Shown one piece after another: positions 1-33,711 of a stretch of 64,000 nt of DNA. Source of the DNA: Psammoneis japonica (taxonomy: Eukaryota); NCBI GenBank assembly GCA_008632985.1, contig QPGO01000024.1, positions 62,001 through 126,000 of the forward strand, in the 5' to 3' direction. Each line of letters opens with the position of its first letter. The stretch's first letter is position 1. The notes under the pieces were generated by a model. That model searched no databases and was not told where the DNA came from. It saw nothing but the letters and a program-made list of their open reading frames with translations. A program made the translations under genes and the position numbers.

Positions 1-1700
1 CTGCCATTCCTTCTCTCATCCGATCAAGACCAACGGAAGCGGGGTGACCCTGAAAGAGGGCCACCGAGTCTCGTCACCTCCCGCCATTTCATCTCTTTCC
101 TCTGTTGTCAGGACCGTTGTCGCGTCTGTTTGTGCTTTTCACGGTGCTCCGGACCCATCCACCATTGCCGATGATGATCCCACATTTTTTGATCAGGGGA
201 GGGATCACTGCAGCGCAGAGGAAACATGTCAGGCCATTGAGAACTCAATCTTCCGCCAAGACACCTTGCTTGACGATCACTTTTTGAACGCTGTGCGATG
301 CTCACCTCCAATGCATCACTGTTCTTCCAACGTTGAGCAGCTTTATGATGCACCCCCATTTCTCCAACATGTTTTTCAAGGGCGACACAAAGTGTGGCAG
401 AAGCACAGGTTTTGCCAGGTGGGATGCCATTGCTTCATTTTCAACGCATCACTCGCCATGGTGGATTTCCAATTTTTGGCCCCATCTCTTCCGATGATTT
501 TTGGCGACAGGATGACTTGCCAGAATGTCCCGTTGCGGTTGATTGTTTGTGGATTGACAAAATTGTCCTTTGGTGCACGACTCAATTTGTCCAAAAGACT
601 CATTGGGAACTGCCTTTGATGTTTTTTGTCGAAGACCGATGCACTGACTGTGGGTTGGATGCTTCATTCCCGCTGCGCCCGCCGTTTGATGGGACACTGC
701 CGTTGATTGTTGTCGGGTTTGTGGATCCAGTCTTGGTGTGTTTTCTCTTGTTTGTTTTGTTCTTTGCCATTCTGGTCCTCTCTTTTTATTCGGATCGTCT
801 CTTTCTTTCTTGTTGAGCATTGCATTGCTCATCAGGGGAGGATGACAGACATCCAAGATGGGGAGCGCACTCCCTTGTGTCGGACAGACTGGCACAGACA
901 GCATGGAGAGATCCGATCATCTCTCTCTGCTCACTTTCTTTCTCATCTAGCACACGATTGTCATCTGTCCCAGATGTCCGTTAGATTGTCCCGACACCGC
1001 CAGTCCGCAAGCATTGCACAAAAAATTGGTGCATCAGATGAAAAGAGAAGAGGGAACTTGTTTGGGGACTCCATGTGGAGAACACAAAGGAGGGAAGCCC
1101 TCTGGGGAACATTGGGTGAATGTGTCTGCTTTGAGGGGACAAAGGCAAATTTAGTCAGGTGGACGTCAATTGAAATTGTCTGGGGTTCCGGGGTCATGCG
1201 GGCCGTGCTGGAATCATGAGGGGTGTGTGTGAAAACAATGAAAGCTGGCTAAATTAAATGAGCTTGACACCTCATTTGAGGAACCAAAACCCTGTGGAAC
1301 AATTTGACCCCCTCATTGAACCCGCCTCTGATGAGGGCTGGAACGCATCAAGCGGTGCTGAGCCGCAGAGATGCGTTGACAGCGCCACTTTGATTTTGAG
1401 TTTTCTTTCCTTTTTACAGCACAAACTCAGACTTCAACACAGCGGGTGTTGAAAATCTGGCAAATGGTGAGTTGATGCATCATCTGCACAACATGGCACC
1501 ATCACACGAACGGGTGCAATGGCGCGGCGTGTCAGCACAAAACTCGGCTCGCTGCCGTTCGCTGACAGCCCCTTTGCAGCCCCAAATGAAAGGTGGCACA
1601 ATCAGCCTGCTCTTGCAACGGGACTCGAAACAACGAATGTTTAGACACCTTGTCTGCCGCGTCAATGTCTTCGTCGGCTCCGTCGGTTTTTTTGACCAGT
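1..1700. other. TpA-depleted, TG/CA-rich degenerate repeat-like block (runs off window start)
   Basis: TA is almost absent apart from TTA/CTA contexts; only spurious Cys/His-rich ORFs; no recognisable domain. Confidence 0.6.
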
Positions 1701-1789
1701 TTGGCGTGTACGTGCGTGTGCCGGTGTGCGTGTTGTCACCGCGGTGATGGTCTGTACGCTCATCCGGAGCGCGCCCGCCCGCATTTGCT

Positions 1790-1812
1790 TGAGTTAAAAT
1801 AATTTTAACTCA
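1790..1812. repeat. Perfect 11-bp-arm inverted repeat at the block edge
   Basis: tgagttaaaat-a-attttaactca, followed by two tcagagccaa direct repeats. Confidence 0.8.
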
Positions 1813-2487
1813 GAGCCAAAATTTATAAATCAGAGCCAATCAAAACGCTCAGATTCTCCGTTCAAGAGTTCTTGCGATATTTTTATTTAAAGGAAGAATT
1901 CTCCGATCTATCGACCGCTTACTTGTTGGGAGGCCCACTGATGGCTGAAGGTGAAGGTGCCATGGTGACCATGGTGTCAAACCCCACCGCCCGCCGCTCA
2001 CGCCACCTCCATTTTACGTACGCCACACCACGCGTAGCTGCATAATGCATGCTTCTTATAACCCATTGAAGAGAGCCCACAGAGAAGCACCAGAGATGCT
2101 GTGAGTAAGACGTTGGCGAAGGAAATAAATGCTCGAGTTTCGTCCCGAGCTCAGTCAAGACTCAAGACGGACAGTGGCAAGAACGGTGCGATTTACAGAA
2201 ATAACCTCATTTGCGTGATTTCTGGGACGACATGACGACGAGTGAAAGCTGCTACTAGTCTACATTGGGATTGGCGGCATGCATGGTGGTTTCAACATTT
2301 GCTGGCTCCGGTGGCAGCGATCGACTCTGTTCTGTGTTTTGAAGTCCTCCAGTTGGACCCGAATTTGTGGAGGAAGCGGAGTGGATCGAAAGATCTATTT
2401 TGAGCGAGAAACGGGACCCTTGTGAAGAATGCATGTCGGGTTATGTGTTAACAAGAACAAGAGCACTTGACATTCGTTGCGACTCCA

Positions 2488-2990
2488 ATGATTCGTGGAG
2501 GAGACGACAACGACGTGCTTTCGTCGGATGTTTCGCTCTCGTCCGAAACCTTTGTTACCAAGAACAATAACATGGTGGATCCCGGCGATTTATTCAAGAA
2601 TCCCCCCTCAATCACCAAAAATGCAGTTTCCGAAGAGAAAACTACAAAAACAGAACTCTTTTGGTTGCTCTTGTGTGTTTGGGGGATCATGTTTTCCTGT
2701 GTCGCGTACGGGCTGATTTTGGAATACACGACATTGGATGGACGCAAGTTGAAGCTATCAGGAAATGCTCGAGACGCGGCGGCCTATGTTGGCAAAGAGT
2801 TGCGGGCACCGCGAGATGTGGGGATGATCCCCGCTTCGTGTTTTCCACATCGTCGATGTACACACACCATGCTCTCGTTCCAACCATGTACGTGGAGCAG
2901 TGACGACGAGGATGTCGGCTTTGTCGTCTCAAATGTTTGGTGTGCTACTCCATAGCACAGTATACAAATATTTCGCGGCATTTTTAATTG
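2488..2990 (+). pseudogene. Truncated fragment resembling the N-terminus of a UAA-family (SLC35B-like) nucleotide-sugar transporter
   Basis: ELFWLLLCVWGIMFSCVAYGLILEYTTLDGRKL resembles TM1 of UAA transporters; similarity is lost soon after and the TE block starts at ~3050. Confidence 0.45.
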
Positions 2991-3049
2991 GAATAGCCTG
3001 TCACATTATGAAACTCTCCCTAGTACAGAATTATTGTAATCAACACACT

Positions 3050-6000
3050 CTAATCTCTGCCATTTTTCGCATCCATCTTTTGAGCCTGTTCCAATCTCTC
3101 AATGGCTGACAAGCGGCAAGGTGTTTGGATTCCGTGCACTTGTCAACGCACCCGTCGGGCGTAAAGACACGACCAAAGTAATGCAGAATGAGCTTGTCAT
3201 CGTTGCAAGCCTCGAGGATCTGAGCCCTGTGCTTCTTGCCATCCTCATTGTGGCACACAGTGTCACCCTTTGCAAACGCAACTTCCTCAAAGACAATCTA
3301 GGAACCCCGAGTGGCAACGCCAGCCTTCTCGTTCGGTTCATTTTCCCTCTCGATTGCACCGGCATCGTTGTCATCCACGCGAAACGTGTGGTGGGAAGCA
3401 AGCTTCCTGGGGCATGATTGTCCAAAGTTGATCTTCTCTCAGCAGAATCAAGATTCACATTGAAGTTGGGAGACTCGTTCTGCCTAAATGGAGCTGGACA
3501 ATCTGACTCTTCGGATGATGGATGACTCGACTTGAAACACTTCTTGGGAGTTGGCGCAGTGCTCCTGTTCATCAGGAACTCACGATGCTGTTCCTCTGTG
3601 CATGGTGCTTGCAGCTGTGTTCCTCAAACTCTCAGCAAGCTGAGTGCATCTCTTGCTGATGCTGATCAAAATCTGGGTCGCCCATTGCCCGGTCATCATT
3701 CCGTTTGGAGCTCTGAGGACTCATCAATCTGACTGACAATGGGTGTTGCCATGATGCCCAAAGCTGATGCAGCTTGTGCGGAGGGACAAGCACGGGACCA
3801 GAAGACCACCGATGATGCTGCTTGTCATGTGGGTCAAGAGCTTGCTGAGCTGGAGCATCTTCTTGAGGCTCGAGGAGAAATTTCCAAGGGAGGAAGCAAG
3901 AGCCCACAGTTGGCTGCAGCAAGCTTCTCAGAATCGCATTTTGAGAGGCTTGATGCAACAGTCTCAAGGTGAACATTTCTGTGTGCAATCAAAGACTGCA
4001 GCACAGCTCATTGATGGAACTGATTCAAGTGACAACATCATTGGGAACATTCGCTCACAAATTGCAGGTGGCATGTGCTGGAGGGGGGGGGTGTCAACCC
4101 TCCCAAACTTGCTTCTTTGTGTTGTGCACTGAGTTTGAGCACTGCCAATTTGCCAAAATGTTGTGTTTGGGTGCCAGCTGCATTCTGTCATTCTTTCAGG
4201 AGCTCAGATGAGGAGCCTTGTTGCACATTTTGTCATCCGTTTGTCATCCAAAAAAAGTGCAGAAGGGAAGAAATGAGAGAAAAAAGCAGCCTCCTTGCTC
4301 GCACTTTGGTTTTTCATTTTTCTGACCGCTTCTTGGGATCCAGTCTCACGAGCATTCAATTTCAGTTTTGGTCACATGGCTGCAGTTGATTGTCACTGAC
4401 AAGTTTACATGCAGCACCTTTCAAAAGAATCAGCACTTCAAAAGAAAATGATCACCTTCCAGCACCTTGAAATTCCAAATTCCTGGGCCACCACCTGCAC
4501 TCAGCACCTTTGGTCTCAGCACTTTGAAAGAAGCATCTTCACTGTCTGCATCTGTTGTCCTCTTCAGTGCACCCAGCCTCATTTTTCACTGACACCACCC
4601 TGGTCAAGTGATGCAAAAGTTTTGTGAAGGTTTGAAAACATTGCAGTCTGTGCACATGTTTGCTTGTGAGTGTGTGAGTGGTGGGTGAGTGCACAAGTGT
4701 GTGAGCAGCTTTGAGTTGGTTTGTGGGACACATGTGCTTTTCATGCAACCTCTGGGTTGGGTTTAGTGTTTGCACATGACTGCACATGGCGAATCTGGCA
4801 GCAACTCATTTGTGTGTTCTCAGGGGTTGGGACCTCGTGCAATGACTCTGGAGTTGAAAGGACAAAACTTTGTGCTGGCTGTTCATCTTCATTGCACAAG
4901 GCAAGACACCCACAAGATTGCACCCATTTGTGCACATGATGCGCATGAGCATCAGCTCAGTCTCAACAAGTGCTCACCCCTTTTTTTCACTTGGTTCATT
5001 TTAGTTGCTTTTGAGTCTCTCATGTCCAAGGTGGCATCTTGTTTTTGTCTCTGGCGGCCATTGGATCTACAGAGAAAGGCCGGCAAACAACTTGCACCTT
5101 GTCAATTTGGGGCTGTCATCTTCAGGCCTGTGCCAATTTGTGGTGACAAAGTGTCAACAAGTGCAAACTGAAGAAGATGTGTGCAGTGACATGTGGAGTT
5201 CACCGGCCAACTTGTCACAGCCATGCAAGGCAAGACACCCACAAGGTTGCATCTGTTTTGTGCATCTGATGAACAAGCATTGGCTCCATCTTGATCAGCA
5301 CTCACAGTCCATTGCAATGCCTTTTTTGCTTGACTGGCTGTGATCATTCTGCCAATCTCGAAGAAGTGCTCAGCCATGAAGAAGACATGTGTTGACCACA
5401 ACTGCATCAAAAAGGCCAAAGTCAAATCTGCCACAATTGACTCTGGAACATCAGCACCACAATCAACATCTGCTTCATCTCCAAGCTTGGCCTTGCACCT
5501 GTCGCCAACCTTGGGAATGTCAGTCACAGTGTGAGTTTCCCTGGAGATGGCAATTGCAGATGCCATGCTGTGTGCAAAGGCCCAGAGGATGCTGGCTCAG
5601 CAGCAGAGGAAGGTTCTTTTGATGAAGACATGGGTGGCTTTAGAAAACTTGTGCATGATCATGCTGAGCAGAACTTTGTGGGCATTTGTGCAGTTTGCCC
5701 TTGGACACTGGGACAAGCACAAGGAGAAGGACAACTCTGCAGCAGATGATGATTGCGGAGGTCTTCTTGCCATTCAAGTTGATTGTAAAATTGTCAGTGA
5801 TTTCAAGGTTGACAAGAGCAAGGAGTGCAACAGCGACATTGATCACAAAGGTTGATTTTGAAAATTGCTCACTTGAATTGTGGCTGTGGCCCCGTCATTG
5901 GTGTGATGCAAATCAAAGGCTCCATCCTTGCACTTCAGTGTGAGCAACCAATTGTCTGCATTTGTGAAGGAGCAGGCAGAAACACCATCATTTGCCATTG

Positions 6001-8850
6001 TTCCAATGGAAAAGTGCAGCTGCTTTCAATGGCTGAGAGACACTTGGCTGTCACCTTTGGCCAATTCCATCATGATCATCCATGACAGCACTGGCCATTT
6101 TTCATGCTTGAGTCAGTTGCACAGAAGTGACATGGTCAGTCCTTGCATGCTGAGTCAGAGTTGCTTCTTTTTGATGACAGCAATGTGCAATCTCACATTT
6201 GTGCATCTTGTGCATGTCTGTTGCCACCATTTCTTGCCACTGCAAGATCACCTCTCCACCAATTGAGCTGTTGGCATGGTCACTGGCGACATTGCCAAAT
6301 CATCAATCACTGCTGGTGTGGTTTGTTTTGTTGCTGCCCAACTGGTTGCCACCTGTGGAGCCAAAGGATGGGCTCAACCCTGCCTTTGCAAAGCACCAAG
6401 CAAAAGCCACCTCTGCTCAGAAGCACCTGGTGCTGAAAATCCACACAAATTCAATGAACAAATCATTCATGGTGCATGGAACATTTCACACATGGTGGAC
6501 CAACAGGAGGAAGAGCAAGAGCAGACTGCAAAAAGCCACCACTGCAGTGATGCAGTCTTGTGTGGATTTAGCACAAATGGATTTGGCAGACAAATCAATG
6601 CAGTTGGTGGAGGTTTGATTCCTGCTGTGGTGTGTGAGAGCAACTGCATCAAGTTGAGTCACAAAGTCTGGACAAACGTTGTCATCATCAACACTTGTGC
6701 TGTGTTGAGTTTAGATGCAGTGTGGTGCATCCTCATTGCAACAAGAAATTTGAAATCCTGCTGTTGTGTGGGCCTGCAGTTGGCACCCTGGAATGCAGCA
6801 CTCCAAAAGGCAGGTGCTCAATTGTTAAAAAGGTGCTGAAGATGAAAAAAGGTGCTGACTTTTTGGCCATTTTTTGAAAGGTGCAGGATTTTTAAGGGTG
6901 CTGAGTGCAGCATCATTTGTCTCAGTGCACTCTCGAGGACAAATGCAAGACCAACAAAAAAGTTAGACCACAACTTGTTCTTGTCTCAATCCATGGAATG
7001 GATGCTCATTTCTGCTGTGCAGCATCATCTGTTGCAAGCAACCATTTGAGTGACTTTTTTAGATTTTTTTTGCCGTGGCAACAAGGGTGAATTCTGCCAC
7101 CATGGTGGTGGTCATTTGCCATCTTTTGTCACAATGCAGCCTTCTTTTCCCTCCATCAAAGGCTTTCATCTGTTGTTGCTTTGTGTGAGCGTCAATGTTG
7201 GTGTTGCTTCAAAAATCTCAAATTCATCAGCAAGATGCTTGCATTGTCTGTTGTCTGCACAAAGTGCTTGTTCTTTGTGTTGTTTTGAAGGGGACAATGC
7301 TGTGGCGCCAGCATTTCTTTGCATGTCATCACCACCTTGGGGCTGTCTCACAATGCAAATGATGGTGTGTTGAAATGGTGTTCCCTGCAATTTGCTGAAG
7401 AAAAGACAGAATTAGAGGAGATGTGCAAGGAGCCATGTGACCACAACGAGAGGACGGATTGCTGTCACAGGCAGAGCTTGGACAAGCAGCATGAGTCAGT
7501 GACAAGTGGGCCAAGAAGGTCATTGCAAAGCTTCAGAATGAAGAGGGGCTCATTGATCCTTGCTGTCAAAAGTCTTTGAGACACAGGAGGGCATGAGCAC
7601 TGTGATGCTGGACTCGGACAATGCTGTTTGTGGGAAAATTTTTGAGTGTGCCTTCTGACAGCCCCACCTTGGGCACCTGAGATGAAGCCAATTGAGCCAC
7701 TGTGGAATTGTCTGGTGGAACATCTTTTGTCAGCCCATTTGGATGACCACCTGTTTTTTTTTTGGAGGGCATCAGGTGGCCTGCCATGCAGCTGCTGTTG
7801 TGCAGTCATTCATGCCAGCAGACATGGAGCCAGCCTGCCGCAACTGTCCACTGTGGCTGCCAAATCTGGCCAGAGTTGACTCTGACATTGCAGCATCTCT
7901 GTGATTGTCAACACATTGCAGTCTTTTGCCATTTTAAAAATGAGTGCACTCCAGTGCAGTTGCCAGTGGACATGGGACAGCAGGAAGAAAAGCCTGCTTT
8001 GGCTTCTCCCTGCTTGCTTCTCCCATTGTCAAATTGTGACAAAACACATGTGCCATGTCACTGGTGCCATCACGGCATGTGCTCCAGCCCAGAGGAACTT
8101 CTCTTCCTGCAGCTTTGGCAGAGGTGGGAAGTGGAGTGGAGTTGGAGGTGGCCTGCTGTGGGTTTGTCAACAACATTTCACCCGCAGCACCGTTGCAACA
8201 GCACAGTCTGTTGCTGGCATTGTCATGCACGGCTCTCCAGCCCACTGCAGAGGAAGGGCTGGCTGCACTGGAGGCAGCGGCAGCTGAGACAGCATGGTGT
8301 GAGACCAGCTGCCTCCCACGACAGAACTCAAAAAAATGGGGGTGCCACTGTGGCCACTGGCTGCTGGCAAGAGTTTGCTGTTGCGTGTCATTGCCAAAAA
8401 AGGATTGACAAAATGAGTGTTGAGTGTTTGCAAGACACAGTGCAAGACACACAGCCAATCTCAAATCAACAACTTGCAATGTGGGGCACATCATTTGAGT
8501 TTAAACTGGCAAGTCAAAAAACCATGGGAACTGCTTTGTTTGTGACAAGACAAAACTCTATTCAGTTGCAGCTCAACTTGTCATCGCATTCATCAAGGCA
8601 GCTCAATGACCAATTTACTTGGCGCATGACTTCTTGAAAGGATCCTTCATCACTGCTGACAACAGAGGAGTCTGGAAGGCTTTCAGGCAATCACTGGATG
8701 TTCACAGCAGCTGGGATTGCACCACCACTGTGGCAATCCACGGAATCTTCTCTCAGCCAGATTTTTGACTCAGCTCGTCATCTGGTTCATCCTTTCTTGA
8801 CATCACATCATTGCACTCGTCAAGCAAAACAGGGTTGTGGCCATCAGACC
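3050..8850. other. Old, heavily decayed repeat/TE block depleted of both TpA and CpG
   Basis: Dominated by TG/CA; no assignable protein. Contains a degenerate direct duplication (gcaagacacccacaag...) at ~4893-4978 and ~5222-5306. Confidence 0.6.
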
Positions 8851-9126
8851 TGACAGAAATTGAAGGCAAATGGCAAGAATTCAAACAATGACTCCTTGCT
8901 GCTGTCTAAATGGCAGATGAGTCTCCGCTCAGAGACCGTTGCAGGAGCCGAAAGACGTGCAAGTCGGCACAATCGGGCTGCTGTTGTTGTCCTTGTGAGC
9001 CTTGTGGCTCGAAAGCAAACTGCATCGTGCGTGAACGCGCGGAACTAAAGCACACAAAACTGTGCGCGGTAAACTAAACAGCGCGCGATGCTTCGCGCGC
9101 ACCCAAATCCTGTTCAAATCCTGTCA
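8851..9126 (-). repeat. 3' LTR of the Copia element (276 bp)
   Basis: On the minus strand the purine tract ggggag directly precedes TGACAG at 9126; the LTR ends CTGTCA at 8851, next to the TSD. Confidence 0.85.
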
Positions 9127-9129
9127 CTC

Positions 9130-12100
9130 CCCAGTTTGCTTGAGGAGTCACAGAAACAGATTCGACTTCGGATGGAATGAAGTTCCAGAACATGAGGGGG
9201 CGGAGAAGGTCCCAGATTTGGGAGCAACCCCAATGCTTGCTGAGAATGTCAGCAGGGTTGCGGGAGCCTTCGATGAAGTGGAACTCAAGGCAACCAGAGG
9301 CAATTGCCTCACGCACACGGTGGAACGACAGTGCGGTGTGTCGCTTGTGTAACTTGGAGTGCGGGATGGTGGCACTGTCTACAACCGACTTGTTGTCACC
9401 GAACATGCAACTGACATTACGGATCGGGACGCCAAGGTGGCGCAGGGTGATGCGCAGGTCGACAATCTGCTCAACACAAGTCCTTGCGGCAACAAATTCA
9501 GACCCGCAGGTCGCAGTCTCCACGGTGGCTTGCTTCTTAGAGAACCAATCAGCCGGGAATTTGTTGAGGAAGTGGAGCATTCCCATGACAGAGCGTCCGG
9601 TGAGCATGCAATGGTGCAAGTTTGCATCGACGTAGTGGGTGGCAGTGACGAACTTGCCAAGGGGCGGTGGAGCGTCCTTCGGGATCATCTCTTCTGCTTC
9701 GCCACACACGGAATGCATCCATTCACAGGCCGGAGCAGGGAGATCCGAACAGTCGGGCTCTTCCGTGCGAACGCGGAGAGCACCGTGTCGCATCTTGGAG
9801 AGGTGCCCACAGACGCGTTTGGCACGATCCAAGTGGCCTTGACGGGGCGCAGCTCGGAAGCTGGGGAGTGACATGACGGCCGTGGCAATGTCAATTTGAC
9901 CAAGGGACACTGCCCATTGGAGTGAACCAACAAGAGACTGGAACTTGTGAATGCCATCGGGTCCCAGCAGTTCGGAAGTGTCCAGTTCGGGGTGGTCACC
10001 CTTCTCCAGAGGTGACAGGGCATTGGTGGTGGGTTTCTCCCCAAACAGTCGGGCTCAGCTGTCGACCATGCGCTCGATGTACTTGCGCGGAGACAGGCAC
10101 AAGGTTCCGTCGGGATCCCGGGAAAAAAGTCGCAACCCAGATGGAACTCAATGGGTCCCGCACCCTTGAGCTTGAACTTGTGCTTTTCCGTGAGAGTGTC
10201 GACGAAAGATTGAGGGTCCTTCATGGCAATGGCGAGGTCATCCACATAAACGGCAATGCATTCATGGTGGTCGCCGTTCCTGCGCATCCAAATGTCGGGT
10301 TCGGCGCGGCAGGGGAAGAAGCCTTCAGCTCGCAGGCAGTCGGCGAAGCGCTCGTGCCAGCGGAGACCGGAGCTGCGCAGTCCATACAGTGCCTTGTGGA
10401 TGACAAGGATGTGTCCTTCGAGTTTGCCAAATTCGGGTCCGGCTGCAATGTAAAGCTTCTCCTTGGTGGTGGCTTCAAGGTGGGCATTGCCAATGTCGGT
10501 GGCCCATGTCTCCAACTCGTTGAGTTCGGCCAGGAAAATCATCAGCCGAAGGCCACGGAGGGAGACTGCTCCGGAGTGGACACTGTCGACAGGTACGTCC
10601 GTGAGGTGCCCGTCGGCTACGAGTCGTGCCTTGTGGCGACCGTCGTGTTTCACGTCGTACACTGGGTGCACTCGGATCTTCTTGTGTCCCGCAGGAGGAG
10701 TGGAAGACTTGAAGGGCCCGCAGTCATGGAAGACTTCGCATTCGTCGAGTTGGTCCATCTCGAGATTAGTTGCGTCTTCCCACTTGCGGTTGTCGTTGCG
10801 TTTGTCTAGTGACATGGCGTGTTTGCAGTTCCGGGGAACTTCGTGTCCGTACTTGTAGCGAGGTGCAGTGCGGAAGGAGCAAAGCTTGGCTTGGTTGGCC
10901 ATGCGAAATAGCTTCTTTTGGCGCCTCGCGATGGTGCGGAACCGCTTCCAGCCATCCGTGTCGAGGAGTCCGTTCTCTCGTGCGTAGATGGCACAGGTGA
11001 CGGGGTCGTCCTTGGCGATGATGGCAAGAGGCTCGGACGTGATCTCCCCACTTTCCCATTCAAGCATGATGTTGTAGCTTGAGCCTTTCCAGGTTGGGTC
11101 GTGAGGCTTCAGAGGTCCTTCGTGTGACACGATGCGTCGAAATTTCCAAACAGTGGTGTCTTCGTCTTCTTGCTCAATGTGATTCATGATGTCATTGTAG
11201 GCAAGGACTTCCTCGCATTCGTCATTGTTGACAGAGCAGACGAACTTAGTGAGCTCGGGATTGCCGTTCACTTTCCATTCGTGGTCTTCGACGGCCTTGA
11301 TGATGCGAGCTCTGTGGCGTTGTCCGTCCTCTTGTGGCTGCATGAGGAAGGTACGTCCAATGATGTCTTGCGGATCGAAAACTGGCATCTTGGGTGTCCT
11401 GATCTCCCCATCAGGAGAATCAACGGGGTTGTCGTCATGGCGAGATTTGATGATGGGTTCAGGTGGCTCCCCATCAGGAGGATCAAGACGCAGGTTTCGA
11501 ACGGCAGGATCGGTGGCAGCGGAGCGGACGTTGGACCGGCAGAGGATCTTCTGAGTCTCGTCAGATAGAATCTTGAAGGTCATCTGGTGGCCGACGTGCT
11601 CAGCAATGCCAACGAAGCGTCCGCGCAACTCACGGGATTCGGACAGCCAATCGGAGTCATCGAGGTGGAAGTGCACGGGTTCCCACCAGTGAAAGCGAAG
11701 CAATGGGCTGATGTCCGGGGTGGAGCCAGTGAGAGTCTCGAGGGGCGTGCGCCAGTGGAGACATGGGGACGCTGTGTGGTTGAGTGTGAAGCACACGTGC
11801 ATGAGCGCCAGCAGCCATGTGTGGGCGGGCGAACCAAAACGATCCATGACGGTGTTCGCCATGCGCTTCACGGTCTGGCATCGACGCTCGGCAAAGTTTT
11901 GGTGTTGCTGGTGAGGCTCACTTTGCCAGCTGGAGATGAAGAGGGCGCGTGGGATCCCAAGCACTTTGTTGCTGATCTCAACTTGAGCACGGTCGCTGAT
12001 GAGTTTGGATGGGGCACCACGTTCACGGATCTGATCCTCGAGTGTGTTGACAAACTCTTTGTCCGTCTTAGTGCCGTGGACGTCAGTGACGGTAGACTCG

Positions 12101-14060
12101 GTGCCAACAAACAGTTGGGCGCTGGTGCAACCAGAGTCGACGGCCGGGGTGTCGGCACAAACGGTGTCAGTGGCGACAGGCTCGTTGCGGCGGTGCACAT
12201 TAAGGGCGGGGTTGGGTGATTTGTGGGCCTTCCTAAGGTGTGTACCGGCGGGCATGCGGGCGCACTGCGTGGTGCAGTCAAAAGTGCGACGGACCGCATC
12301 GGCAGGCAGGAAGCCAAAGTGAGGCCGAAGAGACTCGAAGGGGGGGTCCTTGGGCTGTGCAGTGCGCTCCGGAGGCGGAACGTCATCATCCTTGGGGTCA
12401 ATCGCATGCAGATGACACTCGCAGAACACGTCGTCGTTCGGAATGAGGTGATCATCGAGGGCGGACGCGTGATCGGCAGACAAGGAAGCGGACATGATGG
12501 TCTTGTTGACAACGACACGATGGCGGCAGTTGCCGCATTCGTCAAATGGGTTGGCAGTGGGATCGTCCTGCAGGTCAGAGATCGCGTCGTGCCACTGGTC
12601 GTCGTCAGTGACAGAGTGATCGAGGACGGAAGGGTCCCATGTGTCATCACCGGTGAGGATGACATGGGGCAGGGTGTCCCATTCGGCGTCAGTGTAAGGT
12701 CGCATGGCAACATGAGGCAGGCCGGCCTTGATGTCAATGGGGATGACATGGCCATCAGGAGTGGCGGTGCGTTGCAAGCCGTTGGGCACCTTGACAGAGC
12801 GATCATTGACATCCTGTTTGCACCATTCGAGCTGGCCGCAGGAATGGATGGTCTTGCCCTTGCCCGTGCATGCGCACTGATGGAGGATGGCGATGACGGG
12901 ACCACGCTGGGTCTCAATGACGGCACCAGCGGTGACAACAGGGATGTCCACCAATTGATGATCGTCAATGCCCTGAACGTCGACTTGGCGAGAGGTGCGT
13001 GCAATGACGCGAACGTCGTCGCCAGCAATGCCGCCGTTGGCCCCATGATCGACTAGAGCGCCAGTGCGTGTGGAGCGATGAGCAGAGGCAGAGCAAATGA
13101 CATTGTGGTTGTTGACGCGGCGGCAAGTGCAGCCGTTGAGTTCCATGTCATCTGCAGAAGCTGGCGGGGTAGAGGAAGCGGCGGATGGCCCCGGTCGACT
13201 GGCATTGGGGGCTTGGTTAGGAGACAACAGACGTTGCAGATCACCGGGTGGCAGTGGCTTGCGCTTGGTGAGGTGCGCCAGGATGGGATCATCCGAAGTG
13301 GCACCCACATTTGGAGCGGAGTCACCAGAGTCAGCAGGAGTCGTGTTGGACAAGTTGACATCACCGTCACTCCCAAGGTGTTGGTTGTGAAGGTTGGCCG
13401 TAACAGACTCATGGCAGTTGCTGGCTCACGGGTTGCGGGGAGGCGGACGAGAATGCTCAAGGATGATCGCCTTGGAGGAATCGGGCAACGAATCCCAGAT
13501 CCGTTGGTGGTCGGGAGGGAGACGTCTCCATTGGTCACCGGCGAGGCTGGGACCGCGGGTGCAGGCAGCATTGGCCTGAAGGACGTCAATGTCGCTGTCA
13601 ATGTCGCAGAACACATCGTCGGACGGTTCCTCGGAGCAGACGTCGTGTGCACATGTGGCACGTCGGGGAGCTCGAGGTGTCGTCTTGGGTTGAAACGCAC
13701 TGTCGCACTGAGCTGCCGCGGAGAGGAGCAAGCCACAGCATTGATCGCATGTGAGGCTCTTGCCACTCTGCGTACGATGCTGATCAGCTTGGTTCTTGAC
13801 AGCACAGAGTTCCTCGACAGGGTGCACGGCATTCTCGAGCATGACGCGCTTCTGTCCTTCAGAGAAGTGGTCACTGGCCGGGATGAGTGCCTCGCACTTG
13901 CGCAACTGATCTTGCCAATGAAGGATGAACCCGTGGGTCGGACCTTTCCAAGTGCCATCACCAAGGCGTGCGGTGGCAAGGCACGTGAGCAGGGTGGAGG
14001 ACTCGATGGATGCGCGGGTGGAGGCAAGCGCACACTCAGACAAGGCGTGGCAGATGGTCT
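9130..14060 (-). pseudogene. Copia gag-pol pseudogene
   Basis: ORFs 13426-14202 and 9685-13353 are in one frame, split by a TGA. There is a frameshift at the A-run near 10125 and the RNase H part is in ORF 9074-9910. Many conserved Tyr appear as Cys/His. Confidence 0.9.
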
Positions 14061-14211
14061 GGCTCACAAGGATGACAACAGTGGCCCAATCATGCCGACT
14101 TGCACGTCTTTCGGCTCCTGCAACGGTCTCTGAGCGGAGACTCATCTGCTGTTTAGACAGCAGCAAGGAGTTGTTGTTTGAATTCTTGCCATTTGCCTTC
14201 AATTTCTGTCA
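14061..14211 (+). repeat. Inverted copy of the terminal 151 bp of the Copia LTR
   Basis: Reverse complement of 8851-9001; it differs at five CA/TG dinucleotide swaps and one C/T. Confidence 0.95.
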
Positions 14212-14347
14212 AGACCCAGTGGAGTGAGACATGTCATGATGAAAGATGTGGCAACTGACTGTCATGGAGACAGATGGAAAATTTCAAGTCAGAAGTGTAA
14301 AAAAAACATGCCAGACCCTGTGCCACTGGTGGCGTAGAATGGCTCAG

Positions 14348-14772
14348 TGCAACACACAGCTGCCAACAAGAGTCAATGTATCACGGCGACGTGTTGCAGC
14401 CTTTAAATGTCACAAAGGGCGTGACAAAAATGACCTTTTGTCTTCATGCATGCTGCATTGTGAATTCACAATGGAGTGGTTCATCGCAACCATTGGGCAG
14501 GAGGCCAGGGGTTCGAAACCCTGAGTGGGAGTTGTCTGCAGCAACGTTGATCACTGTCGAACGCGCAAAACTCTGTGCAGTTCTGTGTGTTCCTTCGTGC
14601 GCACCCACACTGTTCCGCCAAAACCGTGCAGTGTCAGCACACGTTAGTGAAGAGCCGCATGGACGCGTGATGCATGGGGAGGAGTGCAACACACAGCTGC
14701 TGACAAGAGCCAATGCATCACATGTCACAAAGGGCGTGACAAAAACAACCTTTTGTCTGCATGCATGCTGCA
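14348..14772 (+). mobile_element. TRIM-like miniature LTR element
   Basis: Direct repeats 14348-14457 and 14685-14772 (TGCA...TGCA); purine tract ggggaggag (14676-14684) directly before the second repeat; no coding capacity; no TSD found. Confidence 0.6.
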
Positions 14773-15872
14773 CTGGTTCAGGGTGTGCACAAATTTTGCA
14801 CCACATTGGCGCACGTGATTTTCACATGAGACTCCACATGCGCCAAGCGGCGCAGACCCAGCACAAAATCAATGAATTTTTGAAGTTTTGTGGCGTGCAC
14901 TCTCAGCATGTTGTGGCATGGATTTGACATCAGCAACAAGGCTTCACACAATGCTGTGTTGGTCTGACTGTGAGCCAAGAAACACAGATGGTCAGGTCTT
15001 GTTCTTGCTCAGCTGGCTGCCCAAAATTTAAGGTGGAGTGCAGCCGGAATGAAGAAGGCTGCAGGTCAATTTGAGGTCCCAGTGAGAACTGGCAAGAGCG
15101 GAGCATCAAAAACCCCTGTCCTTGGCAACGCAGCAACAAGCATGTGAAACTTCACAATGAGACAGGTTGCAAGAAGGAGCTGCCCAAACCACAGGTGGGC
15201 ACAAGCACAGAGCTCTCCCATCTTGTCTGCTGTTGGATGAGCCTCCTGCAGCAGCCATGGCTGCACTTGAAAACCAAAGGTGTGGTGGGTGATGGGATGG
15301 ATTTTGCAAGTTCTCTCAAGACTTTGTGACAGACAAGGCTGAAATTTGGGCACAGCATCCACAGATGCTTTGGGAGAGATGCTGTCAATTTGTTGAGGCA
15401 GGCACTGGTTTGCTGATGGCGCAGGGGTGGGGAAGGCCACAGCGCTTGCTGACGGAGATTTTTTCAAGAGCTTTTGAAGAGGATGACACCATGTTTTCTC
15501 ACTTGGAGGCTTCAGAGAATTGTTTGAACACAATGGAGCCAAACCGCCAAAGTGCGCACTGAATTTTGGAGAATGAAGAAGGCGCGGATCCATGTGGCAG
15601 TGGCCGAGCTGGTGGGACAAGGGGGCTTTTGGACAAAACAAGCTGCCCAAGAAGCCATGATGGACTGGCAGCACAACACTCACAAAGACATCATTGTCAA
15701 GCTGTCATGGACTGACACAACTCCATGGTTGCGTGTTGTGGGAGCTTTGCTGTCAAGCACAAAACCACAGCACCTCAAGTCACAGACAAGCTGCTTTGCA
15801 GGCACAAGCCCAGCCAAGGGCCGCAAGTTGACAGCCCAGCAACATCTTCTCCTTTTCTCCTCTTTTCTTTTT

Positions 15873-15895
15873 CCTCTCTCTCTCTCTCTCTCTCT
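15873..15895 (+). repeat. (TC)n microsatellite in a pyrimidine tract
   Basis: ctctctctctctctctctctc. Confidence 0.85.
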
Positions 15896-16181
15896 TTTCC
15901 TTTTCTCCTTTTCAGTTTGTTCTTCTGGGCCACCTCTTTTGTTCTTCCCACATGCCAAAATCCCAGGCAGACATTGATTGCCCTCAAATGCCAACTTGAA
16001 AAAAAAAAATTCTGTGCCCACGACGAACGAGGAAGAGCAACATGCACCCAGCCACAGGCGGCCCAGCCACCGAACAAAGAACAACGGCGGTATGCTACGC
16101 GCGCGGGAGCCGTGAGCCGTGAAGCAACATGGTGACAAGGCGAAAGACGTGAGCGACCTCCAGCTATAAGGAAAGGGAAAA

Positions 16182-17696
16182 ATGCGGTATTATATCCTGG
16201 CGACAATAAGCACAACATTCATGCTTCTGGATGTATTCAACGCAGCGCCTTGTCTCGTGGATGCTGGGATGCGGTTTTCTCATGTGAGACCCTCTTTCAT
16301 AGCTTCAACGAAGAGAAAGAGAAGTTGCTCGAAAAAAACGAAGCGTGTGAAATTGGCTCAGGTAACTGATGCTTTGGACGTTTCTAAAGGAACCGGATAC
16401 CGTGAATTGTATCCACCGTTGGTTGCACACACAAACGGGACAATCAGAGCAGATTCGTTGCACACATTGCACTACCAAGAGTATGGGTTGACGGTGAACG
16501 ACACGTTGGAAAGTCCAACTACTACACGAACTGCCCTGTTTCTACACGGGGGACCAGGAGCTGGTTGCACTCCAAATCATGCTCGGTTCTTCGACCCATC
16601 CCGGTATCGTGTCGTTTTATTAGATCAACGTGGTTCGGGAAAGAGTACGCCGAGGGGTGAAGTTCGAAACAATACGCTGAGTCATTTGGTGAGTGACTGC
16701 GAGCTGCTGCGAGCTGAACTTGGAATCCGCAAGTGGGATGTGGTGATGGGAGGTTCGTGGGGGTCAACATTGGCTCTTGCTTATGCGCAGGCACACCCAC
16801 AATTCATTGGCTCTCTAATTTTAAGGGGATTATGTACGATGAGGCCTATTGAGATTGACCATCTGTTTAGCGTGACGGGCGGAGCTGCTACCCTTTATCC
16901 CAAAGGCTGGTCAAACTTTGAAGCGGCAGTACTGAACAATGGTGAAATGCACCGCCGCCCCAGAGATACTTTGCATGCCTACTATGACCGACTGCTCGGA
17001 GGCGATGAAGTTTCGCGACTAAGTGCAGCGAGATCATGGTTTATGTGGGAAATGACAGTGACAGCGTCAATGAAAAAGAAGCCGGATTCTAGTGATAATT
17101 CCACGGACGAGAAAGTTCCACCGTCCCCGGTGTTTGTATGGGAGTCGGAAACCGGGTGGTCTTACGAAGACATCAGGGGCGCCAGGATTTCTTTGGCCAA
17201 AAGTAATGATGTTCATGTTGAGCTCATTCAGAGCCTCCGTAGGTTTCCGCCATCAACTGTATCTAAAGGCGGAGATTCAGATGCTACTACCCCACGGATA
17301 CGACCGGTGAAATCGTTCAACGCTGTTTCTTCACGGACGTCACCTCAGTCCGACGTGAGCAATCTTACAGCAAACGTGACCTGGATACCGGCACAGCCCA
17401 TGATAACGAGCTTCTATTCCGTCAACGCTGAGTATGCAATCAACACGACGCTCATTTCGAAGGATCGTGTAGATCGCATTCGGGGTATCCCTTGTATCGC
17501 TGTGCATGGTGAATTAGATATGGTATGCCCAGTCGACACTGCTTTAGATTTACTTGAGCTATGGCCCGAAATGGAATTGAGGATACCCACTTCAGGGGGA
17601 CATTCCATGTACGACCCTCCAATTATGCACGAATTGTTACAAGCGACAGATCAATTTGCAAACCAGAAATCCAACAGTTGTGAAAATATCGAGTAA
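16182..17696 (+). CDS. PIP: Proline iminopeptidase (peptidase S33, alpha/beta hydrolase) with an N-terminal targeting extension
   Basis: LFLHGGPGAG, LDQRGSGKSTP, nucleophile motif GGSWGS, HGELDMVCP, GGHSMYD. Confidence 0.92.
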   Translation: MRYYILATISTTFMLLDVFNAAPCLVDAGMRFSHVRPSFIASTKRKRSCSKKTKRVKLAQVTDALDVSKGTGYRELYPPLVAHTNGTIRADSLHTLHYQEYGLTVNDTLESPTTTRTALFLHGGPGAGCTPNHARFFDPSRYRVVLLDQRGSGKSTPRGEVRNNTLSHLVSDCELLRAELGIRKWDVVMGGSWGSTLALAYAQAHPQFIGSLILRGLCTMRPIEIDHLFSVTGGAATLYPKGWSNFEAAVLNNGEMHRRPRDTLHAYYDRLLGGDEVSRLSAARSWFMWEMTVTASMKKKPDSSDNSTDEKVPPSPVFVWESETGWSYEDIRGARISLAKSNDVHVELIQSLRRFPPSTVSKGGDSDATTPRIRPVKSFNAVSSRTSPQSDVSNLTANVTWIPAQPMITSFYSVNAEYAINTTLISKDRVDRIRGIPCIAVHGELDMVCPVDTALDLLELWPEMELRIPTSGGHSMYDPPIMHELLQATDQFANQKSNSCENIE

Positions 17697-17850
17697 ACTG
17701 TATGCTTTACGTAAAAGTTAAAGAAGCTCGCAAGAAATAGGTACTGGAACGAGTAGGTAACCATTTTTCTCACTTTATGAAACACATCTTCATACGAGTT
17801 ATACTATCAATTCTTCTCTCAGCTCCAAAGCAAAACTTGATGAAAGTCAG

Positions 17851-18906
17851 TTAGCTCCGTTTCTGCGTTGTTGAATCGAGGAGCTGTCTTGATTCCTCAT
17901 CATTGTTTGACGCTGATCCCGAACGTTCGACGTCGTCCTTGGTGTCAATCATTTCGGATTCTGAAGCACTTTGCTTAACGTAATCCTTTCGAAGTGGGGC
18001 CTGCTTGTAAATGCTACCACCGACGAGGCACAAGAATAGACAAGCAATTCCCATTGGGTTGGCGTGTTGATCCCAAACGAGCAAATTCAACAGGACAGTA
18101 AGACATTTGTTTATCACACCAATAAGAGTAAAGCTGGTTGCAGACACCTTGTCCCTACACCACCATCCAGTGTACCCAATGCCGGTCCCAACGATACAAC
18201 CAAGGAGCAGAAGAGCGGCACTACCTGGAGTAAGCCAATCGTCTTCTGCGTCCATATCCTCTTTTAAGCTGGCGTATTCATTCCCCATGGCCGCGAATAT
18301 CAACATGGGAGGAAGCCCTAACAAGTTTGCATAAAGCACAGGCCCACTTTTCGTCTTGAGGTCGACGGATTTGAGAATATGTTTCCCGAATACCATCTCG
18401 AAGCTAATAATGAAGAGATATGCGATAGGCCAAGTATACGCGCTCAGTCCCTGCGACCGAAACTTCTCGTCCGTTGAAGCATAACCTAGCGCTCCAAGAA
18501 CGATGAGAGCCAAGGCTGACCAACTTCTGAGTGATGGGTATTCGCGGCCAAGAAAAATGACCTCCAAGAACGCCACGACAACCGGGGCGGTAGCGCGAAA
18601 GACGATGACAGTTTCAACGTTGGATATGGAGAGACTCTTCATATTGCAGTAGATGCCAAGGCTAAAACCTATTGTGTACCCCAGATACGGCAGCACAAAC
18701 TTCCACTTGACGGGATCCACCTCAAGGAGCTTCGAGAACTTTGCCCCAATGATGAAGGCGAGGGTAAAGAGCAGCTGGACAGAAACCACGATGCTTGGGT
18801 AGGGGAGGTTGTGAAGAATCAATTTGTTGACCAAAACTAGCGTTCCTGAACAGAACGAATACGCCACAACGGCAAGAAGCACCTCTAGTTTGGGTGACAG
18901 GGACAT
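17851..18906 (-). CDS. Golgi nucleotide-sugar transporter (GDP-mannose/GDP-fucose, GONST/SLC35-like)
   Basis: Multi-TM protein; LVLVNK, SNVETVIVFR, SATSFTLIGVINKCLT. Confidence 0.88.
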   Translation of the reverse strand: MSLSPKLEVLLAVVAYSFCSGTLVLVNKLILHNLPYPSIVVSVQLLFTLAFIIGAKFSKLLEVDPVKWKFVLPYLGYTIGFSLGIYCNMKSLSISNVETVIVFRATAPVVVAFLEVIFLGREYPSLRSWSALALIVLGALGYASTDEKFRSQGLSAYTWPIAYLFIISFEMVFGKHILKSVDLKTKSGPVLYANLLGLPPMLIFAAMGNEYASLKEDMDAEDDWLTPGSAALLLLGCIVGTGIGYTGWWCRDKVSATSFTLIGVINKCLTVLLNLLVWDQHANPMGIACLFLCLVGGSIYKQAPLRKDYVKQSASESEMIDTKDDVERSGSASNNDEESRQLLDSTTQKRS

Positions 18907-19683
18907 GGCGCAGGTGCTATGCTATCTTTGGCTCTCCTCTGGCGTTGTGCTCTTTCTTGCTTCCCCTTTTGAGCACTGTAATTTTTTGCGATGATGTGCA
19001 TGCCCGAACGCCATGTTGTCCGTACAAGTCCTACATGGGTTCTACGGGCAATGACCCCGTCTATTTCTTGCGCGATGCGTTGAGGCTGACGGATCATGGA
19101 CGGACGAACCTCTATCAAGATCATGCGCGCATGCATGCATCCAGCATGGCATGCATCAATTCAATTCAATCCCAAAAATTACACGACCCATTTTTGGGCC
19201 GCCACCTAATAGGGCCTAGTAAGCTTAGTCACGCCTGCTTGTCCCAGCAATCCACAACCATGGATGGGTGCAGAGCGTCCAAAACAAATACACTTTCACA
19301 ATTCCGCGGAGTTAGTTGTGCGGCGGTGTTGGTGCGGTATGCATCATCGCATCCATCGATCGCATCTATCGCATCGCATGCATGCATGGCATGCATGATA
19401 CAGTAGAATAGAAGTACTGTAGCACTACCGGTACAGTAGAGAGAGTCCAAACTACCACACAAGCAGAAGAACTCGACTCATTGCATGTAATGACTTAGCA
19501 TGATGCCTAAAGCTTTAAGCTTTGCTTTCTAGACTCACCTTGGTGTGTTCAATTCACACCTCGCTTCGTTTCGACTTTAGGAGGCAACTGTCGTAAGGTA
19601 TTTCTCGTGTTAAGACTTTGCAATGGACAAGTTAATGAAAGGAGGAGATATCGTTTCATTTTGATGGAGTGGAAAAAGCGCAA

Positions 19684-20325
19684 TCATGGTGCGCGGTTTG
19701 TAGAGCCACGCACACATTGCTGCTCCTGCTCCGTCATGAAATCAAAATACCGATGTAACACAATGCTTGCAGCGACATAGATATTTAGACTTGCCGTTCC
19801 TCCACCATACTGCGGTATTCTCACAAATCCATCGCAAGAAGCCATTTGCTTTTCATTCAATCCTTGCCCTTCATTTCCAAAGACGAAGGCGACGGCATGG
19901 GTCGCATCAAAGATTTCTTCAATCAACTGAGACGAATCGTGAATTTCAACCCCAATTAATCGAACACCTAGTTCCTCTAAGTACGATACACAATCTTTCC
20001 ACTTTTCAAATCTTTGTATAGGTAAATGCCCATCTCGTACGTGTTGCTTGATTTTCCGAGGAATGTCGCGTCCGTTAGGGTCAAAGTCAAAAGAGGGTTG
20101 TCCCACCACCAACACCGCTTTGCATCCAAAGGCCGCTGCTGTCAGCAACAAGGACTTGACGTTTCGACTTTTCGATATATTGGTAATTACAAGGTACATT
20201 CCCATGGGCGAGGACGTTGCTTGTTGTGGAACGGGAGCTAGCGATTTGTTGGAATCTTTCGCGGTGTTAGGTTCAGCATGTTGGTCAGAAAAGTCTGGTG
20301 ACTCGTCGTTGAGTGTCTCGCTCAT
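19684..20325 (-). CDS. SpoU/TrmH-family RNA 2'-O-methyltransferase
   Basis: FVFGNEGQGL and VRIPQYGGGTASLNIYVAASIVL SPOUT motifs. Confidence 0.92.
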   Translation of the reverse strand: MSETLNDESPDFSDQHAEPNTAKDSNKSLAPVPQQATSSPMGMYLVITNISKSRNVKSLLLTAAAFGCKAVLVVGQPSFDFDPNGRDIPRKIKQHVRDGHLPIQRFEKWKDCVSYLEELGVRLIGVEIHDSSQLIEEIFDATHAVAFVFGNEGQGLNEKQMASCDGFVRIPQYGGGTASLNIYVAASIVLHRYFDFMTEQEQQCVRGSTNRAP

Positions 20326-20725
20326 TTTCGAATTTTGATAGCGATGTCGTCAATCAAGAGAATCTGTAAATAAAAGTTGGTTTAGGTTCGACTGGGAATG
20401 CTATTAATAGCTAAGACAGGCAGAGTCGTCACACAAGACACAAGGTAACCTTTCCGCAGTTTCAACTTTGGACTTTGCATGTTGCATGTTGCATGGCTGC
20501 ATGCTGCATGGTATGTGCGGATGACGGAAAGACTAAACAAGACTTATACGCGATCTCGAGCTCCAGAGCTCGTAAGGATTGAATTGTTAGCCTTTCACAC
20601 GATTTTTACGATTTTTCCAAAATTTTCAGGTTTTTATTTTTTTGTGGAAGCCAGATTTGCAACTTGCAACACAACACTCTTCTGTACTGCACGCAACATG
20701 CAACACGGTGAGGAGCGAACTGACC

Positions 20726-23248: not shown

Positions 23249-23895
23249 AGTAGAAGTAAGGTTGACCAAATAGCAAGCACGAAATGTGTTTGGCCGTTTG
23301 GCTTCGGGCATTAATTTGCAAAACCCAATTTTCAGACAGTAGCACCTTCCTTAAAAGAGTTAGTTAAGCGAACTGACATCGGTATGACCTCCCTGCTTCG
23401 TATGCAACTCGGAAGTAGTATTCTCTATCTACTATACAAGCTGCTCTTTATATGTTTCTTTTTTAAACTAAGTAGAGAGTTAAGGAGCCTAGAGTAGAAG
23501 TAATGAGAAACGTGGGGGGCAGCAGAAGGAGGCGTCGAGGCAGCTGTTTATCGGCTACGTATCGGAGCGGAGTTTTCGTGGCGGGCAAACGGGCGGGCTT
23601 TGCTTTTTGACGTGCCCTTCCTTAGTCCGTTGTTGGAAGGAGTTTTCGTGGTACAAGATTTACGTGATCCTACGTGAGTTTGATTTTTTGAATATCCGGG
23701 TCCGGGCAATGTAGAATGACAAAAACAAAAATGAGAGGTGAGGCCAACGAGGCAACTCACTTGAAACAGGACAGTCAGAGAAAGGGCTACCGCATGCAAC
23801 ATGTACATCCTGCAACCACCGGTAGTCTCTACTCTCTCGAGGTACCGTAACGCCCTTCTGGCTGCAAAACGCACTGTCTTGCCCTGCGCTGGAGT

Positions 23896-24936: not shown

Positions 24937-25293
24937 ATAATGTAGAATCAGCGTACCAGGTACGAGAAAGCTAGCTAATTTCTTAGAGATTACCATCGAC
25001 TATGCTACACTGACGACTCGCAACAATGATGATAGCAATGTCATTCAGCAAATGGCTACCCAACTATCTCCAACATATTGTACGCTACTCGTCGGTGAGC
25101 ACTTCTCCAGTTCATAGGCCTCCTACTCGTAGGCACCGCCGGAGCTGATCCAAAAGTGAATGAATGAAACTTCCCGTTCGTTTTGGATTCTGCCCTGTGT
25201 CAGCTATCTGTGTTCAGCATTCAGCATGTACGGTATGTGCTTTATTCGCTGTCAGTCTGTCCGACCCTGATCAAAAGTGAGGAAGGATGAGCG

Positions 25294-26706: not shown

Positions 26707-26815
26707 GTTGGCCGCTACGAATCTAGACAAGATAATCAAAACAAGAAAACTGTCGCTCTACAGTACAGTAAACTCCTTTCCCAATCAACACTTTTCGTCA
26801 TAGCGACTGCCATCG

Positions 26816-33707: not shown

Positions 33708-33711
33708 GCGC

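Follow-up and report, generated by a model that had tools for sequence, protein, structure and literature searches.

The window contains TA-poor blocks with sharp borders

The window analyzed here is the whole 64,000-bp stretch of contig QPGO01000024.1 (positions 62,001 to 126,000 of the forward strand, assembly GCA_008632985.1) from the pennate diatom Psammoneis japonica. About half of it (31,965 of 64,000 bp) lies in blocks that have lost nearly all of their TpA steps, and a retrotransposon at the edge of one block carries changes that are almost all conversions of TpA into TpG or CpA. The blocks were located by a scan of dinucleotide observed/expected ratios (o/e) across the window, at 1–1645, 3202–16017, about 31000–40065, and 49990–58427. 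In the blocks, the o/e of TA is 0–0.1 and those of TG and CA are about 1.8–2.2. Most blocks are depleted of CG as well. The blocks outside the two mobile elements, and the host DNA used as part of the baseline, are as follows.

1–1645: genomic repeat, depleted of TA but with only partial loss of CpG (9 TA, 67 CG; read depth 1900–4500)
3202–8850: old block with both TpA and CpG lost, single copy today, with no recognisable protein domain
14212–16017: continuation of the old block to the right of a Copia-like insertion (6 TA and 39 CG in 14230–16017)
33981–40065: deep TA- and CG-depleted block adjoining a long terminal repeat (LTR) element (6085 bp; 22 TA, 141 CG)
49990–58427: deep TA- and CG-depleted block (8438 bp; 28 TA, 85 CG)
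16018–29019: host-gene DNA with normal TA and CG (TA 38–52/kb)

The depletion of TA in 3050–8850, which an earlier note made from the sequence letters had described, amounts to 22 sites where the density outside the blocks predicts 240; CG is reduced to 72 against 339. Within the block border, at 3202–8850, the counts are 19 against 233 for TA and 63 against 330 for CG. The combined density of TG and CA is 228/kb in 3202–8925 and about 142/kb outside the blocks. The excess of 86/kb matches the combined losses of TA (38/kb) and CG (47/kb), which sum to 85/kb. Thus, both self-complementary pyrimidine–purine steps became TG or CA via transitions. TG and CA occur in about equal numbers in every block, so the two strands are alike.

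The loss reshapes the reading frames of 3202–8850. Both strands together contain 317 TGA triplets, 20 TAA, and 13 TAG. Since TAA and TAG are nearly gone and TGA is abundant, long open frames in this block are meaningless, and for annotation, long TGA-only open frames inside such blocks are artefacts. A Pfam search of 131 open reading frames (ORFs) of at least 90 aa in the deep blocks, including 3202–8850, gave no real match. A phmmer search with the 296-aa ORF at 7747–8634 against 1.84 billion proteins gave 0 matches. Read depth over 1–20000 was taken from contigs of two runs of one sample. The depth of 3202–8850 is 38–64, as for host genes (about 51), indicating a single copy.

The block borders are sharp, with composition switching within 100–200 bp or less. 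The border at 16017 lies 150 bp ahead of a host ORF. At the right end of the last block, 58427–58562 (135 bp) lacks any TA, and the sequence is TA-rich again from 58563. The segment 58563–58700 beyond it carries about 20 TA in 140 bp, is 75% A+T, and is unedited. None of the eight ORFs that encode host-type Pfam domains falls within a block. The CpG-decayed blocks are probably methylated and silenced.

TpA changes are confined to one LTR of an integrated element

The third block begins inside an LTR retrotransposon, which is flanked by a 4-bp target-site duplication, GCGC, at 29016–29019 and 33708–33711.

29020–33707, minus strand: LTR retrotransposon with 367-bp LTRs and TG..CA ends
29020–29386: unmutated LTR with 30 TA sites, never TG or CA where its partner has TA
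33341–33707: mutated LTR, adjoining the deep block, with 22 TpA changes, one other A>G change, and one CpG change

The two LTRs differ at 24 positions. Twenty-two of these are TpA changes (11 A>G and 11 T>C), one is an A>G change at GAT, and one is a CpG change. All 22 TpA changes are in LTR 33341–33707 and none in LTR 29020–29386. The LTRs were identical at integration, and 22 of 24 differences are TpA changes in one of them; the process therefore acts on DNA after integration. In seven control repeat pairs (related elements, other organisms), interchanges between TA and TG or CA make up 0–31% of the differences in six, and the seventh pair is identical.

Counted per adenine on either strand, A>G changes affect 22 of 60 adenines preceded by T, compared with 1 of 55 preceded by G and none of those preceded by A (62) or C (47). 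C>T changes affect 1 of 42 CpG and 0 of 49 CpA sites. These counts bear on an error-prone polymerase of the DNA polymerase eta type, recruited to repeat chromatin and making WA>WG errors (W, A or T), which the earlier note had offered beside a deaminase. TA is one of the two WA contexts. However, AA>AG changes (0/62) are absent where TA>TG changes are frequent (22/60; p=1.5e-8), and comparable AA>AG rates were the note's own criterion for such a polymerase, which is thereby refuted.

The element is edited on one side. TA falls from 12–18 to 2–5 per 200 bp at about 31000; the part from 29020 to 31000 is untouched, and the part from about 31000 to 33707, which faces the deep block, is edited. 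This one-sidedness points to a positional target, a chromatin domain, and argues against element-wide homology targeting. It also argues against editing of element transcripts by an ADAR- or ADAT-like enzyme, fixed by reverse transcription. Such enzymes typically prefer U on the 5' side of the target, according to the Discussion of a preprint on Bigelowiella natans (bioRxiv 10.64898/2026.01.13.699255). Yet integration yields identical LTRs, of which only one carries the 22 TpA changes; the two strands are equally affected, editing covers only part of the element, and single-copy 3202–8850 is affected as well. An origin in RNA is hardly credible.

Two further observations concern this element. 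One TA>CG double change is found between 29347–29348 and 33668–33669. Sequential TpA-dependent hits cannot make such a change, and this single case suggests that both strands were modified in one episode, before the first hit had been fixed by replication. In addition, the label Gypsy, given to the element in the earlier note, was not borne out by a Pfam search of 27 minus-strand ORFs, in which the only match, to RT_RNaseH, scored 19.8 bits and missed the cut-off of 24.8.

Conserved tyrosine codons give the direction of change

The LTR comparison alone cannot tell TA>TG/CA from a change of CA or TG to TA, as in fungal repeat-induced point mutation (RIP). The direction was therefore polarised with proteins, using a retroelement within the second block.

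8851–14211, minus strand: Copia-like retroelement in the old block, with TpA lost and CpG kept (RVT_2, E=4e-25)
9685–13425, minus strand: open frame P0121 (1246 aa), a Copia-type reverse transcriptase, used to polarise the direction of mutation

The element ends in TG..CA and is flanked by a 5-bp target-site duplication, AGACC, at 8846–8850 and 14212–14216. Thus, it is a single insertion into an older block, now split into 3202–8850 and 14212–16017. Its read depth is 70,000–185,000, compared with about 51 for single-copy DNA, indicating a very high copy number. Over 8926–14229, 38 TA remain together with 392 CG (CG o/e about 0.9).

P0121 was aligned to 25 homologues of at least 1500 aa, taken in hit-list order; its relatives are 45–71% identical among the best 120 matches listed. 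Thirty-one alignment columns have Tyr in at least 80% of the 25 homologues. In these columns, the window copy has Tyr in 7, Cys in 9, His in 10, and another residue in 5. Conserved Tyr is thus replaced by Cys or His in 19 of 31 columns, and the other classes of conserved residue are kept at 71–100%. The overall composition shifts likewise, with Tyr at 0.8% against 3.9% in relatives and Cys at 3.3% against 0.9%. Replacement of Tyr (TAY; Y, pyrimidine) by Cys (TGY) and His (CAY) is the product of TA>TG and TA>CA, which establishes the direction as TA>TG/CA. The near equality of Tyr>Cys (9) and Tyr>His (10) indicates that the strands are hit about equally. In 79 related Copia loci from metagenomes, the TA o/e is 0.41–1.02, with none below 0.4. 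Since the relatives are not TA-poor, the TA poverty is derived here and is no family trait.

These data also address fungal-type RIP (CpA>TpA) acting on a TA-rich copy, as well as selective avoidance of TA and CG. Such readings draw on the ambiguity of a single LTR comparison. The conserved Tyr columns contradict them, and the lack of C>T change at CpA in the LTR pair contradicts RIP. A TA o/e of 0–0.1 with TG and CA doubled is not producible by RIP. Avoidance is at odds with relatives that are not TA-poor and with proteins that are destroyed rather than recoded. The probability left to either is negligible.

Two further observations concern the Copia-like copy. Its termini are inverted, over 151 bp (8851–9001 and 14061–14211, 93% alike); direct terminal repeats are present in 21 of 37 related metagenome loci of at least 6 kb, and inverted ones in none. 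In addition, about 1 kb at 10385–11352 retains 17 of the 38 residual TAs of 8926–14229 and 5 of the 7 kept conserved Tyr codons. Many of these residual TAs lie within CGTA or GTAC/GTAG. Gene conversion by a less edited copy might explain the segment, as might local protection, for instance through a methylated CpG nearby.

TpA is lost much faster than CpG

The old block has lost both TA and CG, and the element inserted into it has lost TA only. In the LTR pair, 22 of 60 TpA but 1 of 42 CpG sites have changed. Thus, the TpA process is much faster, an argument that would rest on the LTR pair if the Copia-like element was already TA-poor at insertion. CpG loss with gain of TpG and CpA, as in decay through cytosine methylation, is seen in the repeats, with a CG o/e of 0.04–0.3 in old blocks and about 0.9 in the young insertion. 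Judged from composition, a second and slower process accounts for the CpG loss in the older blocks.

Six of the metagenome Copia loci (L049, L040, L021, L005, L007, and L069) have a CpG o/e of 0.03–0.24 and normal TA, so CpG decay is common in the element lineage and TpA loss is not. The tetramer GCGC is barely depleted in the deep blocks, including 3202–8850 (86 against 109 expected), compared with ratios of 0.15–0.34 for the other CpG contexts. This retention is probably context drift, in which TACG becomes TGCG and CGTA becomes CGCA.

Flanking bases influence which TA sites survive

The deep blocks comprise 28,984 bp with 123 TA, and the DNA outside comprises 32,437 bp with 1340 TA. The survival ratio, deep blocks over this proxy baseline, is 0.265 for YTAR (R, purine), 0.114 for RTAR, 0.064 for YTAY, and 0.030 for RTAY. 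The earlier note had proposed that YTAR sites survive, to be checked by counting NTAN (N, any base) tetramers inside and outside the blocks; the count reveals unequal depletion as proposed (YTAR against the rest, Fisher, odds ratio 4.1, p=1.4e-12). The 19 survivors in 3202–8850 consist of 14 YTAR, 4 YTAY, 1 RTAR, and no RTAY. In all deep blocks, YTAR makes up 60 of 123 survivors, compared with 14–19% in three baselines: host DNA, the unmutated transposon part 29020–30950, and the 79 related Copia loci (p 1e-7 to 1e-20). ATAT is found 0 times in deep blocks and 106 times outside, and TTAG 21 and 51 times. The residual sites that the note had quoted, tttagt, ttttaagg, gtttaaac, and gtctaaa, are present at 4764, 6893, 8502, and 8907.

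A Poisson model of R/Y flanks, with one factor per strand, is superior to uniform loss (chi2 68.9, p=1e-16), also for 3202–8850 alone (chi2 31.0, p=2.6e-8). Because both processes are transitions, the R/Y flank classes cannot drift. A four-base model improves on the Y/R model (chi2 27.0, p=1.4e-6); it is multiplicative and strand-independent, and fits the survivors (deviance p=0.13). Its survival factors by the base after A are 0.075 for T, 0.26 for C, 0.45 for G, and 0.58 for A, with the contrast between T and C partly inflated, since single-base flanks do drift (ATAT towards GTGC). In the two blocks with loss of TA only, the factor is low only for T at +1 (0.09), and C (0.47) behaves like A and G. 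Survivors have A at +2 in 53% of cases, compared with 27% outside, and often read tTTA[AG]a beside A/T runs. The order of loss is solid, from RTAY (fastest) through sites with a single favourable flank to YTAR (slowest).

The earlier note had further proposed TAY as the target motif, read on the strand of the mutated A. The LTR pair agrees with it. TAY is mutated in 20 of 44 strand-sites and TAR in 2 of 16 (Fisher p=0.032); by the base at +1, the fractions are 13/28 for T, 7/16 for C, 1/6 for G, and 1/10 for A. The note's count of 18 of 20 changes with A in TAY is reproduced when the TA>CG double change is left out, and becomes 20 of 22 with it. Nine mutated sites discriminate between strands, and seven of them fit, also as the note had it.

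The Copia-like element speaks against the own-strand rule. Its conserved Tyr codons after a pyrimidine (YTAY) have become Cys in 5 cases and His in 7, with Tyr kept in 5, where the rule predicts mostly Cys; 5 of 12 fit. Measured against the family baseline, YTGY and YCAY rise equally (+11.9/kb and +13.5/kb). Pooling the LTR pair and the Tyr codons, 12 of 21 discriminating sites fit. The ratio YTGY/RTGR is 1.35–1.64 in five blocks depleted of both TA and CG, 0.93–1.28 outside, and 0.96–1.14 in the TA-only-loss blocks, and CpG decay alone leaves it unmoved in relatives (0.87 against 0.85). Depending on the ancestral composition of the old blocks, this shift would favour a TAY-strand bias in them. 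Discordant TG/CA pairs between the inverted termini of the Copia-like element carry no strand information, since in each pair one member fits and the other does not, and an ancestral CG would look alike. The flank preference may be a property either of the strand with the edited A or of the whole duplex site.

An editor of silenced DNA may account for the pattern

The data show a DNA-level process that acts after integration and turns TpA into TpG or CpA, within mobile-element or silenced DNA whose domains have sharp borders. It acts only at TpA and about equally on both strands, at a rate set by the flanks, fastest at RTAY and slowest at YTAR, above all at TTAA and TTAG, and it removes Tyr codons and TAA/TAG stops. 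The mechanism proposed for it would inactivate transposons and other foreign DNA in a RIP-like manner. The agent would be an enzyme that is recruited to silenced chromatin and modifies one base of the TpA step. The most likely chemistry would be deamination of adenine to hypoxanthine, read as G, as proposed for B. natans. A TadA-like DNA deaminase is a plausible candidate. Taken as a whole, with the enzyme and adenine deamination included, this is the account towards which we lean. The earlier note had also placed the activity in repeat chromatin, and that part stands, namely a TpA-specific A:T>G:C process acting on repeat or silenced DNA with an influence of the flanks; the part invoking polymerase eta falls with the AA counts.

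Several points weigh against this account. Nothing in the sequence evidence separates adenine from thymine as the modified base. The Tyr codons and the equal rise of YTGY and YCAY run counter to an own-strand TAY rule. The deep-block survival ratios use proxy baselines in place of the true ancestral sequence, and the reads used for depth may be those behind the assembly. The block at 3202–8850 appears to be single copy, with a source not recognisable from its ORFs. None of the 79 metagenome relatives carries the signature, which is thus not general among diatoms. Finally, the study covers one 64,000-bp window of one genome.

The base in question could instead be thymine. A thymine-directed enzyme, for example a TET/JBP-type dioxygenase, would oxidise T in RTA in silenced DNA and lead to T>C. 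Because A in TAY and T in RTA on the other strand form the same base pair, such an enzyme fits the sequence data exactly as well as adenine editing does. Oxidised thymine mispairs with G. However, we know of no TET/JBP-type enzyme from this diatom. In dinoflagellates, a TET/JBP homologue makes 5-hydroxymethyluracil (5hmU), a base that is concentrated in repeats and silences transposons, and the available part of that source does not report 5hmU as strongly mutagenic (PMC11572971). The authors of the B. natans study prefer deamination in the available part of their preprint (bioRxiv 10.64898/2026.01.13.699255). A literature search found no paper joining 5hmU, dinoflagellates, and TpA. We regard a thymine enzyme as unlikely.

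A third possibility is a non-enzymatic lesion at the weakly stacked TpA step, with efficient repair in open chromatin and inefficient repair in heterochromatin. The blocks coincide with DNA that shows CpG decay and is probably methylated and silenced, and the flank dependence could mirror local DNA structure, with alternating RYRY lost and YYRR kept. Against this, 22 of 60 A sites have changed in the mutated LTR, compared with one change in about 265 bp of the rest of it. A targeted enzyme is indicated by the transition-only outcome and by borders defined to within tens of bp, as well as by the episodic activity described for B. natans lines (bioRxiv 10.64898/2026.01.13.699255). A spontaneous lesion is thus improbable, and targeted editing of TpA remains the preferred account.

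Comparison with known systems

To our knowledge, the TpA signature has otherwise been reported only in a preprint of April 2026 on one chlorarachniophyte, and no natural DNA adenine editor serving eukaryotic genome defence has been identified. In mutation-accumulation lines of that species, B. natans, two integrated viral regions accounted for 231 of the 302 de novo mutations. Of these 231, 230 were A>G or T>C, every one of them at TpA (bioRxiv 10.64898/2026.01.13.699255). Rates were about 1000-fold over background, in some lines only. The same source describes 124 genomic clusters of TpA-poor, CpA- and TpG-rich windows and an enrichment of RT and DDE domains among TpA-poor genes, and its authors propose adenine deamination with ADAT2 as a candidate (bioRxiv 10.64898/2026.01.13.699255).

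The two systems share A>G and T>C changes only at TpA, giving TpG and CpA, in foreign or mobile DNA. In the diatom window, the transitions are confined to TpA (22 of 24 LTR differences), the clustered TpA loss is matched by a gain of CpA and TpG, and mobile DNA (the Copia-like and LTR elements) is hit with host genes spared. They also display notable differences. First, the host here is a pennate diatom rather than a chlorarachniophyte, and so belongs to another branch of the supergroup. Second, the loss here is near saturation, with a TA o/e of 0–0.1, compared with 0.45 for the region of nucleocytoplasmic large DNA virus (NCLDV) type given in the available part of the preprint. Third, the diatom loss sits in transposon relics together with CpG decay. 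Fourth, a flank hierarchy is seen in the diatom, whereas the main text of the preprint is without a flank analysis.

RIP of fungi needs duplicated DNA and makes C>T changes at CpA, creating TpA. It resembles the diatom process as a transition hypermutation at one dinucleotide that is limited to repeats and inactivates transposons, with sharp borders and elements partly affected. It differs in that TpA is destroyed, not created, in the diatom, and in that 3202–8850 is single copy now. AID/APOBEC enzymes likewise hypermutate mobile DNA in a short sequence context. However, they convert C to U on one strand of single-stranded cDNA, whereas the diatom changes are A:T>G:C on both strands of integrated DNA.

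TadA acts in a UAC(G) anticodon-loop context, and ADAR has a 3' G preference. TadA, ADAT2-3, and TadA-derived base editors share with the proposed process an A>I chemistry and a 5' U or T before the target, and UAC(G) resembles TAC. T at +1 is at least as favoured as C in the diatom, so the preference is not specifically TadA-like. The 5hmU of dinoflagellates, made by TET/JBP homologues, is also a base modification on repeats in a protist of the stramenopile–alveolate–rhizarian (SAR) group that silences transposons, but it is an epigenetic mark, and no mutational footprint is reported in the available part of the source (PMC11572971).

A literature search found no paper on TpA hypermutation in diatoms; the sole match for diatom and hypermutation (SPLASH) is unrelated. 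What is new is that a TpA footprint of the kind known from B. natans occurs in a pennate diatom, where it has reached saturation and lies in transposon relics. Its presence here suggests that the system is old or widespread among SAR protists. A wider proposal is possible, although we consider it rather doubtful: that a chromatin-targeted base editor, which recognises the TpA step as a duplex and has a restriction-like RTAY preference, is common to distant SAR protists (diatom and chlorarachniophyte), works faster than CpG decay, and clears Tyr codons and TAA/TAG from transposons, as a natural eukaryotic DNA adenine deaminase or thymine editor and a counterpart of RIP with opposite chemistry. 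With the diatom, the enzyme can be sought in a second lineage, one that is culturable. Any candidate is constrained by the loss of RTAY and retention of TTAR, the sharp domain borders, and the LTR element that is edited over part of its length. Builders of base editors would also be interested in such an enzyme.

Other features of the window

The host-gene DNA at 16018–29019 has Pfam matches to abhydrolase, EamA, poly(A) polymerase, His_Phos_1, and DUF711. The poly(A) polymerase is nearest to those of pennate diatoms, with a best match of 83% and with Cylindrotheca and Nitzschia (both 78%) and Seminavis (77%) among the nearest. The nearest relatives of the DUF711 protein are also from diatoms, at no more than 60%.

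Two other repeats are found. Within 49990–58427, a decayed pair (51518–51754 and 56666–56906) is 80% alike. Just outside the third block, 40391–40727 has normal composition and contains two diverged tandem copies, 78–84% alike, with a period of about 209 bp.

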